Shown: piece by piece, positions 46,702 through 48,910 of the stretch
How positions within the stretch are numbered: position 1 is the first letter of the stretch
Layout of the letters: each line of letters starts with the position of its first letter
DNA from: an uncultured Candidatus Rokubacteria bacterium
Lineage (GTDB): Bacteria > Methylomirabilota > Methylomirabilia > Rokubacteriales > DASRDR01
DNA length: 64,000 nucleotides
Reading direction: 5' to 3'
NCBI GenBank assembly: GCA_963708025.1
Contig: CAVPSB010000018.1
Coordinates: 224,001 to 288,000 of the forward strand
Translations under genes and position numbers: made by a program
Notes under the pieces: generated by a model
Databases searched by the model: none
Seen by the model: the letters and a program-made list of their open reading frames with translations, nothing else
Told to the model about the DNA's origin: nothing

Positions 46702-47364
46702 ATGCACGTCCGGGCGCTCCTGTTCGACGCATACGGCACCCTCTTCGACGTCCACTCGGTGGTCGCCGCGGGCCGCGCGATCACCGCGGATCCCCGGGCC
46801 CTGTCCGAGCTGTGGCGGGCCAAGCAGCTCGAGTACACCTGGCTCCGCACGCTCATGGGCCGCTACGAGGACTTCTGGGCGGTCACCGAGGCGGCGCTGA
46901 CCTTCGCCTGCCGCCGCCTGGGTCTCGCGGCCGGGCCTGCCGAGCGCGCCCGGCTCATGGAGGCGTACCTCGCCCTCGACCCGTTTCCCGAGGTCCGGGT
47001 CGTGCTCGAGCGGCTCCGGGACCTGCCGTGCGGCATCCTCTCGAACGGCGCGCCGCGGATGCTGGAGGCGGCGGTGTCGCACGCCGGTCTCGGCCCTCAC
47101 CTGCGGGCGGTGATCAGCGTCGATGCCGTCCGGCTCTTCAAGCCGACTCCCCAGGTCTACGCGCTCGGCCCGGACCGGCTCGGCGTGCCGAAGGAGGCGA
47201 TTGGCTTCGTCTCCTCGAACTGCTGGGACGTGGTGGGGGCCAAGGCCTACGGCTTCCAGGTCGTGTGGGTCAACCGAGGACGGGCCCCGCTCGAGGAGCT
47301 GGGCGTCCACCCCGACCTGGAGGTGGACGACCTCGAGGGCCTGGCGCGCGCCCTCGGCCGCTGA
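46702..47364 (+). CDS. Haloacid dehalogenase type II
   Basis: FDAYGTLFDV, WRAKQLEY, LSNG, FKP, SSNCWDV. Confidence 0.93.
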   Translation: MHVRALLFDAYGTLFDVHSVVAAGRAITADPRALSELWRAKQLEYTWLRTLMGRYEDFWAVTEAALTFACRRLGLAAGPAERARLMEAYLALDPFPEVRVVLERLRDLPCGILSNGAPRMLEAAVSHAGLGPHLRAVISVDAVRLFKPTPQVYALGPDRLGVPKEAIGFVSSNCWDVVGAKAYGFQVVWVNRGRAPLEELGVHPDLEVDDLEGLARALGR

Positions 47365-47399
47365 CGAACCGTGCTACGGTGAGGGCCCTGAAGGAATCC

Positions 47400-47527
47400 A
47401 GTCCTTCCGGCCCCCCTCCCCCCGGTGCCCGCCGGAGGGACGGGACGTCGCGAGGGCTGTAGGCCCGAGCCGTCCTGGCGATCCGGTCAATTGGGAGGGG
47501 GGTTGGGGGGTGGGCGGGAGGTCCCGA
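47400..47527 (+). repeat. Family C repeat, copy 4 (in leader of merB-like gene)
   Basis: Ends GGGAGGGGGGTTGGGGGGTGGGCGGGAGGTCCCGA. Confidence 0.82.
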
Positions 47528-48184
47528 ACGGAGCTGACGATCAAGACCGCCGACGAGCTGGTGGACCCCGCGCTCGAGGCCCGGCTGGTGGCGCGGCGGG
47601 CCAGGCGTCAGGATCCTGCCCTGCAAGCGATCCTGCGCCTGTTCCTCGATCGCGGCGGCCCGGTTGGCGCCGATGCGATCGCGGCGGCGGTACCCGGTCG
47701 CCCTCGCGACGCCGTGCTCGCCACGCTGGCCGAGCTGGACGCCGAGGACCTGATCCTGCTGGGCGACGGTGGGGTCGAGCTGGCCTACCCGCTCGCCACC
47801 GGTCCCAACCCCTTCGCGGTGGCCTTCGCCGACGGGCGGCTGCGCTACGCCTGCTGCGCGATCGACGCCCTCGGCATCCCCGCGATGGTCCGGCAGCCGG
47901 TGGCGATCCGCTCCCGGTGCCACCACTGCGAGGCGCCGCTCCACTTCCCGGTCGACCCGACCGGCCCCGGTCGCGCCGCCGACGGCGTCATGGTCTGGGT
48001 CGGCGCGTGGGGAGCGCGCACGCAGAAGGTGTGCACCTCCCTCTGAACGGTCCTGAACTTCTTCCGGTCGGAAGAGCACCTGCGAGCCTGGCGGCGCGAG
48101 AATCCGGACGTGCCCGGAGCCGCCGCGACGGTCGCCGAGGCGTTCCGGCTGGGCCAACGTATCTTCGGCGACCTCCTCACCTGA
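47528..48184 (+). CDS. merB: MerB-like organomercurial/organometal lyase, probable selenoprotein (in-frame TGA 48044-48046); start codon uncertain
   Basis: [13 protein letters not shown] (Cys/Asp catalytic pair), IRSRCHHC, then [31 protein letters not shown] in the same frame. Confidence 0.85.
48047..48076 (+). promoter_or_regulatory. Putative bacterial SECIS element
   Basis: Stem TTCTTCC (48059-48065)/GGAAGAG (48070-48076), loop GGTC, starting 12 nt after the TGA. Confidence 0.68.
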
Positions 48185-48209
48185 GCGTGTGCTAACCAAG
48201 AATCCGGTC

Positions 48210-48293
48210 GTCCGGCCCCCCTCCCCCCGCCAGAGGCCGAAGGCCGTCGCGATGGTGGGGGAGGGGGGTTGGGGGGTGGGCGGGAGGTCCCGA
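48210..48293 (+). repeat. Family C repeat, copy 5
   Basis: TCCGGCCCCCCTCCCCCCG..GGCCGAAGGCCGTC..GGGAGGGGGGTTGGGGGGTGGGCGGGAGGTCCCGA. Confidence 0.82.
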
Positions 48294-48297
48294 TAAA

Positions 48298-48910
48298 TCA
48301 GGACCTGGCGGCGCGCCGGACGGCGGCGTCGCGCAGCCCGCCGAGCGCCGAGATGGTGCCCCGCCGCTCGAAGTAACCGGCCATCGGCTGCCAGCCGGTG
48401 GGGATCGAGCCCATGGCGTAGACGACGAGAGTGCCGCCGTCCTCGGGGACGAGCTGCCAGAAGCCCCAGTTGTCCTCCCAGAGGTCGTTCTCCCGTGTCG
48501 TGTCGAGCCGCCAGGCGAGGATGTGGTCGAACCGGCTGGAGACGATAGCGCATGTGGTAGCGGAAGCTGAAGGGCCCGAACTTGCCCTCGTTCCGGATGA
48601 CCCACGCCTCCGCGCTCTCCTCCAGCACCTCCACGGTCCGGAGCCCGGGGAAGATCTTGGGGTAGCGCGTCGGCTCGGTCAGGATCGCCCACACGGGCTC
48701 GGGGCCCGTCGGCACCCGGATGAACGACACCGCGCCCCGCGCGCCGGATACCGGGACGCCGTCGCGCGGTGGCGGGCCGTCGCGATAGACCACCTCGCCC
48801 CGGGTGAGTCGCTGCCGCTCGTCGGCCGAGAGCGCGGGTGGCGGGGCGCCGGTCGCCGGTCCGAGCAGGAGCTGCGACGGCCAGCGCCGCGATCACGACG
48901 GCGCTCGCAT
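48298..48910 (-). pseudogene. SRPBCC/START-like secreted protein, frameshifted
   Basis: Fragments ERQRLTRGEVV, PEPVWAILTEPTRYPKIFP and NDLWEDNWGFWQL lie in different frames. Confidence 0.65.

Follow-up and report, generated by a model that had tools for sequence, protein, structure and literature searches.

A MerB-family gene with a predicted selenocysteine at its catalytic site in a Rokubacteria genome and its relatives from soil and groundwater

A 64,000-nucleotide stretch from an uncultured Candidatus Rokubacteria bacterium (assembly GCA_963708025.1, contig CAVPSB010000018.1, positions 224,001 to 288,000), referred to here as the window, carries a gene of the MerB family that is interrupted in frame by TGA at positions 48044-48046. 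Comparison with related sequences indicates that this is almost certainly a genuine selenoprotein gene, mis-truncated in annotation, and a member of a large clade from soil and groundwater. The UGA very probably encodes selenocysteine (Sec) at the predicted catalytic site, in place of the second catalytic cysteine of MerB. The overall explanation preferred here, that the gene is an intact selenoprotein of MerB fold and a proposed lyase, is considered probable. A first-pass annotation of the window, made from its letters alone, had already proposed a Sec-dependent MerB-like lyase. That proposal is supported by conservation of the UGA, by a hairpin located behind it, by the sel genes of the genome and by the retained MerB residues, from which the activity is predicted.

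Reading frame, MerB fold and the UGA column

With TGA translated as U, the frame running from GTG 47510 to the final TGA at 48182-48184 contains TGA 48044-48046 as its single interruption. Exactly 45 sense codons separate the two TGA codons and the peptide ends in ...GDLLT, as the first-pass annotation had described. Its expectation that standard annotation would truncate the product was likewise correct, the predicted protein of the window gene being 178 amino acids long and ending at the first TGA. All other coordinates given there hold, with the exception of 47528 as the start, where the codon is ACG. The nearest in-frame start codon is GTG 47510, located within a repeat element and, judging from the sequence, likely the actual start. 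It should be noted that the window DNA has a G+C content of 71%, so that an open frame behind a TGA carries little weight. Frame and hairpin alone are near chance, and the case is therefore built on homology and conservation.

The read-through protein matches the Pfam MerB family (PF03243) with 97.6 bits (E = 7e-28, gathering cut-off 27), covering positions 2-126 of the 126 in the profile. The full profile is covered only when the TGA is read through, and a protein ending there is without the last third of the domain. In a search of the genome with the same family, the match scored 90.1 bits with one TGA inside. Among solved structures, E ≤1.2e-8 was reached by MerB and MerB2 only, in sequence alignment with entries of the Protein Data Bank (PDB). 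This alignment places the TGA at the first C of the MerB CC pair, Cys159, and YACCAID (47846-47866) at the Cys96/Asp99 site, both as had been claimed; the active-site residues are designated as in the Haft & Gwadz preprint (bioRxiv 10.1101/2022.07.06.499078). Cys116 and Asp119 are thus named equivalents that have been kept, while the Cys159 column holds UGA (Sec), a chemically similar yet different residue. Among the relatives, C116, D119, C137 and H138 form invariant alignment columns, and six residues downstream of the UGA are also invariant (N183, F185, W194, G203, F212, and F219). The motif around Cys137 reads CHHC in 49 of 69 Sec forms and CHRS in 10, with other variants in 9 and none found in 1.

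The predicted structure agrees well with the sequence alignment. An AlphaFold2 model, based on an alignment of 24 relatives, displayed a mean predicted local distance difference test score of 87.6 and a predicted template modelling (TM) score of 0.86, with low confidence only for residues 1-4 and the loop just before residue 179. All 11 Foldseek matches in the PDB with E ≤0.001 were MerB or MerB2 (E 6e-12 to 8e-8). For MerB itself (EC 4.99.1.2; plasmid R831b type; PDB 1s6l, 3f0o, 3f0p, 3f2f), the same fold was recovered with E values of 1e-10 to 1e-11 and TM scores of 0.63-0.77. The equivalents of Cys96, Asp99 and the third cysteine are conserved, together with the FF pair. In contrast to MerB, the window protein has Sec for Cys159 and an extra Cys before the Cys96 equivalent. 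Its identity to annotated plasmid MerBs is 28-35%, and no model of NCBIfam release 20.0 was passed, including the two MerB models (NF009710, 76.0 bits against a cut-off of 193; NF033555, 62.6 against 200).

The column of the UGA was followed through several sets of relatives. A six-frame search of 61 related genomes detected the gene in 41, nearly every match with one TGA, and 28 of the 30 loci aligned from these genomes have TGA at the exact column, the other two having TGC (L039, L046). A pattern scan of public genomes, with one genome per species, returned 74 loci. Where these loci of metagenome-assembled genomes (MAGs) align across the column, TGA is present in 71/72 and TGC in L124, while L116 and L130 have no alignment there. 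Their hosts are mostly Rokubacteria/Rokuibacteriota/Methylomirabilota MAGs from soil and groundwater; a few bins are labelled Gemmatimonadota, Acidobacteriota, Myxococcota, Binatia, or Actinomycetota, and one as an archaeon. In a phylum-wide search, 124 of 251 genomes gave a match at E ≤1e-10. Among the listed matches of at least 220 bits, counted by hand, TGA occurs in 83 of 87, including the unpublished genome G132; three of the remaining four are full-length without TGA and one is partial, ending before the column. Other families of the class possess mostly weaker, stop-free (Cys) forms. Altogether about 100 loci share the TGA, some at only 43-45% identity, and the 45 codons behind it are conserved as protein. 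Orthologs with TGA and orthologs with Cys at this column, the comparison suggested at first pass, were both found, with conserved downstream coding.

Assembled contigs of four sequencing runs (X1, X2, X6, and X20) were also aligned to the window; gaps in their coverage are uninformative. No single contig covers the whole stretch. A contig from X1 covers 47849-48079 with 0 differences and retains the TGA. A contig from X2 covers 47775-48079 with 13 listed differences, none at 48044-48046, and 25 more whose positions are not listed. TGC or TGT at 48044 had been named as an observation that would overturn the prediction; the assembled contig of an independent run, as distinct from raw reads, keeps TGA. 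Summed contig depth rises from about 10 to 141-459 over 48031-48092 in X1 and X2, an increase of 10- to 40-fold, with smaller rises in X6 and X20, and is likewise raised in the bin coding for CCAID (47845-47875). Contigs of many community members therefore match these conserved stretches at ≥85% identity. It can be observed that the UGA with its hairpin and the CCAID stretch are near-identical in DNA across many community members.

These data bear directly on the proposal that the TGA is a true stop, whether by nonsense mutation, by assembly error or in a natural 178-residue protein. Gene callers do end the protein there, and among the 120 best database homologs about 95 extend over no more than 60-82% of the query. 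In detail, 25 of these 120 matches cover ≥93%, and the others (most at 72-79%) are mostly 164-194 residues long and are named "hypothetical protein", "alkylmercury lyase", "organomercurial lyase", or "mercuric reductase". Against a true stop stand the same TGA in about 100 loci with conserved protein behind it, the Cys found at the column in homologs, the missing last third of the MerB domain in the cut protein, and the TGA kept in an independent assembly. A true stop is accordingly regarded as very improbable.

Among the 25 full-length database homologs, the column holds Cys in 24 (P0057 repeats L046) and Ser in 1. Ser was observed at the Sec column in P0013 (T-G-T-S-T-T) and P0117 (D-S-R-S-T-T), with NFFRSEEH kept in both; these may reflect a change of TGA to TCA, or errors in the sequences. 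Deduplication reduced 94 loci to 71 distinct genes, comprising 69 Sec and 2 Cys forms, L124 being dropped with a split alignment. Among the 69 Sec genes, U is preceded by L in 62, T in 3, Y in 2, H in 1, F in 1 and never by C, and it is followed by T in 56 and H in 13; the window gene reads L-U-T. All 69 possess a Cys directly before the Cys96 equivalent. Of the 25 Cys forms, by contrast, 23 have V or I at this place, and the two exceptions (P0008, P0009) nest among Sec forms. The Cys-form sister clade (P0011-P0062; L039, L046) is alike in length, motifs and phylum and is 46-54% identical. It differs in S-I-C-L-T at the column, in V/I for Cys115 and in a hairpin destroyed in the two loci with DNA. 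A quick maximum-likelihood tree with 98 rows requires three or more Sec/Cys changes and locates a 23-member Cys clade next to one Sec subclade, with support 99. Four classical MerBs occupy branches of 1.5-4 changes per site, split into two places. Because of these very long branches, no root or direction of Sec/Cys change is drawn.

The hairpin and the selenocysteine machinery

The hairpin reported at first pass is present in the sequence and is the local minimum-energy fold. It begins 12 nt behind the TGA, combines a 7-bp stem with a GGUC loop and encodes FFRSEE, and it resembles a bacterial selenocysteine insertion sequence (SECIS). Its conservation among relatives, which had been suggested as a check, extends to synonymous sites in the 69 distinct Sec genes. 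Counting from the UGA, Phe codons +5 and +6 are TTC in 69/69 each (89% elsewhere in the same Sec genes), Arg +7 is CGG in 69/69 (36% elsewhere), and Ser +8 is TCG in all 67 genes with Ser (43% elsewhere). Glu +9 is GAA in 63/69 (16% elsewhere), the other six using GAG with a G-U pair kept. Just outside the stem codons vary freely, and Arg +13 is encoded by AGG, CGG, AGA, CGA, or CGC. Since the stem is fixed at synonymous sites and the outside codons are free, selection acts on the RNA and not on the protein. The sequences are related, and for this reason no probability is attached to the codon bias. The pairing is lost in both Cys-form loci with DNA (L039, L046). In L124, a TGC form nested among Sec forms, the pairing is still kept, as expected if the change is recent.

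The machinery for decoding UGA was found in the same genome, which comprises 8.17 Mb in 49 contigs and is 99.67% complete. All four genes that had been listed for confirmation exceed their curated cut-offs, namely selB (371.9 bits), selA (597.8), selD (398.4), and the tRNA-Sec gene selC (76.2). The genes selC, selA and selB are clustered on contig C32. A dispersed repeat is common to the window contig (C18), C7 (with selD) and C32, and therefore ties these three contigs to one genome. The selD gene (C7:91381-92304) displays one in-frame TGA of its own. Two glutaredoxin-like genes of this genome have TGA at the active site (C19:253977-254201; C14:485115-485213), and their hairpins start 17 nt after the U of UGA, compared with 15 for the window gene. 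The genome is probably rich in selenoproteins.

As an alternative, the UGA might be read through without selenium, by a near-cognate tRNA (Trp, Cys, Arg) or through a lineage-wide code change. UGA read-through occurs in bacteria, which is the sole general support for this idea. The window gene and 14 of 30 aligned homologs terminate in TGA, so the genetic code is the standard one. A SelB-dependent mechanism agrees with the conserved hairpin and with the complete Sec machinery, and Cys alone alternates with UGA in quantity. Decoding without selenium is thus given the smallest chance of all the explanations weighed, slightly below that of a true stop, and selenocysteine is strongly preferred as the residue at position 179.

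Surroundings of the gene in the window and in relatives

The features of the locus are listed in Table 1. As the first-pass annotation had stated, the upstream neighbour is a haloacid dehalogenase (HAD)-superfamily hydrolase (PF00702). In 73 related loci it does not appear in any recurrent cluster of neighbours and hence is no conserved partner. Further neighbours, all unrelated, are a D-Ala-D-Ala carboxypeptidase, a nitroreductase-like gene and an SRPBCC gene on the minus strand; the latter, beside the repeat, may be a frameshifted or truncated gene. One E. coli plasmid copy of merB sits between merA and merD, whereas no merA, merR, merT, or merP adjoins the gene in the window. A Pfam scan of 13 neighbouring open reading frames (ORFs) detected no members of the SAO locus, which accompanies the known MerB-like selenoprotein SaoL, beside the gene; the SAO models themselves were not run. 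Together with the search of the genome for MerA described below, this agrees with the earlier claim that merA and sao genes are absent nearby.

Table 1. Features of the MerB-family locus (positions within the window)
Feature	Position	Strand	Remarks
Sec-containing MerB-family coding sequence (predicted)	47510..48184	+	224 residues if the start is GTG 47510; ends with TGA 48182-48184
Codons for Cys115-Cys116-Ala-Ile-Asp119	47852..47866	+	Cys116/Asp119 correspond to MerB Cys96/Asp99; Cys115 is extra
CHHC motif	47918..47929	+	Cys137 is the third conserved MerB cysteine (PDB alignment)
UGA, predicted to be read as selenocysteine, residue 179	48044..48046	+	equivalent of MerB Cys159 (PDB alignment)
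SECIS-like hairpin	48059..48076	+	arms 48059-48065 TTCTTCC and 48070-48076 GGAAGAG; loop 48066-48069 GGTC
HAD-superfamily hydrolase, upstream neighbour	46702..47364	+	Pfam PF00702, E 5.5e-20
G/C-rich hairpin repeat (REP/MITE-like), upstream copy	47398..47527	+	direct repeats D1, D8; fold -81.5 kcal/mol
Same repeat, downstream copy	48203..48293	+	19 nt after the stop codon; fold -63.1 kcal/mol, z -2.85
SRPBCC/polyketide-cyclase-like ORF	48296-48793	-	Pfam profile positions 5-63 of 126 only; remainder of frame Arg-rich

The gene is flanked by both copies of the repeat in direct orientation. The 35-nt core of this repeat has 66 copies in the genome (39 forward, 27 reverse) with ≤3 mismatches, compared with 0 for a reversed control. 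The upstream copy contains GTG 47510, together with a GGGAGG stretch 12 nt before it.

Across the 73 related loci there is no universal neighbour, and contexts differ by subclade: 11 loci have a rhodanese gene immediately behind merB, 10 have LigD immediately before it, and others have a luciferase-like gene. The 11 rhodanese loci belong to the subclade of genus g5 (L084-L128), where a rhodanese-domain sulfurtransferase gene follows merB by 22-142 nt on the same strand. Loci of this subclade also have an ECF sigma factor gene, about 1.6 kb upstream of merB. The first clustering of neighbours, limited to ORFs of ≥70 amino acids with a GC3 filter, missed small UGA-containing partners, which were later read with TGA as U. 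In 20 of 72 loci a glutaredoxin-like gene follows merB, mostly after 18-83 nt (two at 207 and 788 nt). It displays S-T-U-Q-S-C, and the first position of the active site is UGA in 19 of the 20 (L059-L127). Next to it, in 19 of these 20 loci, is a LysW-like Zn-ribbon gene, which occurs anywhere in 21 of 73 loci. Behind the Zn-ribbon gene stands either a MerF-like gene (9 of 74 sources; Pfam MerF, E 1.8e-10) or a MerT/HMA-like gene (13 of 73). In L070 the MerF-like part of a membrane gene has only one Cys of the usual pair. The description of the gene as stand-alone, given at first pass, consequently holds for this window and fails for the family, in which 20 of 72 related loci form a mer-like operon.

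The closest relatives of the window gene are those of L057 (genome G001) and L058 (G003), both 62% identical in the best segment. At L057 (5032-8610), eight in-frame UGA codons are distributed over about 3.6 kb. Besides the lyase, this locus encodes a MerT-like membrane protein that carries a fused HMA domain with G-M-T-U-x-x-U (NF041115, 92.2 against 95 bits; MerTP, 75.4 against 180) and a Sec-glutaredoxin-like protein with U-x-x-C (NF041212, 55.6 against 66 bits). Its Zn-ribbon gene has three UGA codons, giving C-x-x-U and U-x-x-U. It further includes a class-I flavoprotein disulfide reductase with C-x4-U, for which MerA is the best model (352.8 against 454.45 bits) and which is without the C-terminal Cys pair. 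L058 has the same set, except that the Zn-ribbon gene is upstream and has two UGA codons. The UxxU metal-binding (seleno)proteins of NF041115 and the Uxx-star glutaredoxin-like proteins of NF041212 are known selenoprotein types. Here they resemble neighbours of the lyase in other genomes, both just below the cut-offs, and are absent from the window.

The nearest system in print is SaoL (NF040728), described as a "selenocysteine-assisted organometallic lyase" that is MerB-like (bioRxiv 10.1101/2022.07.06.499078). According to that preprint, SaoL shares the Pfam MerB family, has Sec at the position of MerB Cys159 with its substrate unproven, and likewise loses about its last 50 residues in database entries. 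The differences are considerable. SaoL is described there as having a C-U dipeptide, in anaerobes only, within a nine-gene SAO locus including an ABC transporter, whereas the present clade has L, T, Y, H, or F before U, Rokubacteria/Methylomirabilota-type soil and groundwater MAGs as hosts, and Sec-glutaredoxin-like, Zn-ribbon, and MerF/T-like genes as partners where present. With the SaoL model the window protein scores 47.8 bits against a cut-off of 140, over residues 46-146 only. As the curated models failed, the dipeptide is L-U and not C-U, Cys115 is invariant and no SAO locus is present, the clade is, by sequence, distinct from both MerB and SaoL, the latter being the sole MerB-type selenoprotein found in print. 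In tables of two reviews of prokaryotic selenoproteins (PMC9312934, PMC13188914), SaoL is the only MerB-type entry. No Sec-MerB other than SaoL was found in the published literature; the deep-Sep supplement holds only a C-U (SaoL-type) protein, and in one BSepDB supplement MerB, alkylmercury and SaoL do not occur. One Methylomirabilota MAG with 63 predicted selenoproteins is mentioned in the 2026 review (PMC13188914), from a groundwater MAG study, and that selenoproteome may already list the family.

Integrity of the gene, proposed chemistry and substrate

Several results weigh against an intact, functional selenoprotein lyase. The hairpin is no stabler than shuffled sequences, with z of +1.32 over 76 nt and +0.55 over 47 nt (144 of 200 shuffles as good). 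No two-sided compensatory change was found in the stem among the 69 genes, because the stem hardly varies, and its support is therefore conservation and not covariation. A search of 47400-48400 against Rfam with a permissive threshold gave no SECIS or credible match, the best hits being to models of miRNAs, located on the hairpin of the repeat. The genome, a MAG, shows 8.18% contamination. It has no MerA above the cut-off (best 385.8 against 454.45 bits) and no close homolog of the operon partners seen in relatives; a search for the MerF family was also without a match, to which little weight is given since its control had none either. Among the 61 related genomes, MerA exceeds the cut-off in only 2. 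A scan for promoters and terminators found nothing on the plus strand near the gene. Moreover, the ancestral start seems to have been displaced by insertion of the repeat, GTG 47510 being the likely new start. Relatives start just before an (E)L(E/T)IKT motif, where the window has ACG 47528. The translated upstream frame of the database relative P0004 (90% identical) is without the repeat and reads ...GVELTIKT, and the window frame reads ...TELTIKT after the repeat, from which the replacement of the start is deduced. Finally, mercury binds selenium very tightly, so that release of a mercury product may be hard, which may argue for another substrate.

Part of these observations would also be accounted for if the window copy were a stranded remnant that has lost its operon and native start to repeats and is unexpressed or decaying. 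The two flanking copies of a 66-copy repeat, the ACG at the start position of relatives, the missing promoter-like site and the lack of partner genes in the genome are in line with such a fate, as is the downstream minus-strand SRPBCC gene, whose Pfam match is limited to the first half of the profile. However, the frame is fully open, with the invariant residues, the UGA and the hairpin all intact, and an in-frame GTG with GGGAGG 12 nt upstream is available in the repeat. Whole subclades are also without the operon. In addition, a contig from the RNA library X20 covers 47782-47932 with 1 difference, for which carry-over of DNA is possible; other X20 contigs cross 48032-48106, and one loose end reads through a TGA. 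These contigs are no more than a hint of expression of the window gene. A stranded remnant is hence considered improbable, and the intact selenoprotein gene is retained as the preferred explanation.

For this intact gene the findings comprise the conserved UGA, the Sec/Cys pairs, constraint on the hairpin RNA, the Sec machinery, and the fold and residues of MerB; selenocysteine insertion, catalysis, substrate and expression are predicted, and the following course is proposed. During translation, SelB with Sec-tRNA(Sec) would recognize the GGUC-loop hairpin 12 nt after UGA 48044 and insert Sec179. Translation would then proceed through 45 more codons, completing the MerB domain. By analogy with MerB, Cys116 and Sec179 would hold a carbon-bound thiophilic metal between them, and the leaving carbon would receive its proton from Asp119. 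Cys115 may help to release the tightly held metal, or may form a protective Se-S bond with Sec. The Sec-glutaredoxin-like partner, where present, is a candidate for release of the metal from selenium or for guarding the Sec. MerB-type lyase chemistry by Cys116/Asp119/Sec179 is, on this analogy, likely.

Regarding the substrate, an organomercurial such as methylmercury is favoured, since the partners in relatives are of mercury-system type (Sec-glutaredoxin-like, Zn-ribbon, and MerF/MerT-like); the assignment itself is no better than evenly balanced. A real MerB-fold selenoprotein could instead act on a non-mercury substrate (Sn, Pb, As, Se, or Te compounds) or serve as a metal chaperone or sensor. 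Such a function would be consistent with the absence of MerA above the cut-off from this genome and from 59 of 61 relatives, with the failure of both curated MerB models and identities of ≤35% to plasmid MerBs, and with contexts that vary by subclade (rhodanese, LigD/Ku, luciferase-like monooxygenase). MerB entries also exist under PDB codes 5u79-5u7c, which we take to be organotin and organolead complexes. On the other hand, every MerB catalytic position is retained, and the partners, where present, are of mercury type, including MerF, MerT/MerTP, and UxxU HMA proteins. The authors of SaoL voice the same doubt, questioning mercury as the substrate of their Sec form (bioRxiv 10.1101/2022.07.06.499078). 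A non-mercury function is, on balance, rather unlikely, and cleavage of an organomercurial is kept as the working assignment.

More broadly, a counterpart of the mer system that is based on selenium is tentatively suggested for the Rokubacteria of soil and groundwater and for their neighbours, with the window gene as a stand-alone member. Its parts may comprise Sec-MerB, a Sec-glutaredoxin-like protein, a Zn-ribbon protein with up to three Sec, MerF/MerT-like membrane proteins with UxxU domains and sometimes a Sec MerA-like flavoprotein. To our knowledge, MerB is the only enzyme dedicated to breakage of the mercury-carbon bond, and merB gene counts in environmental surveys serve to estimate methylmercury degradation. 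Since most of the best-matching database entries of the present clade stop at the catalytic residue, its members may be taken for fragments or for enzymes lacking the second catalytic residue. If the suggestion is true, the selenium-based counterpart would handle or demethylate trace organomercury, a sink that merB surveys would have missed with its members cut at the UGA. If the enzyme is active, the Sec and Cys forms would furnish a natural pair for probing the role of selenium in cleavage of carbon-metal bonds, and would reveal how an enzyme gets free of the very tight bond between Hg and Se. The family would also add a metal-handling member to the selenoproteomes of Methylomirabilota, which a recent review describes as unusually large (PMC13188914).

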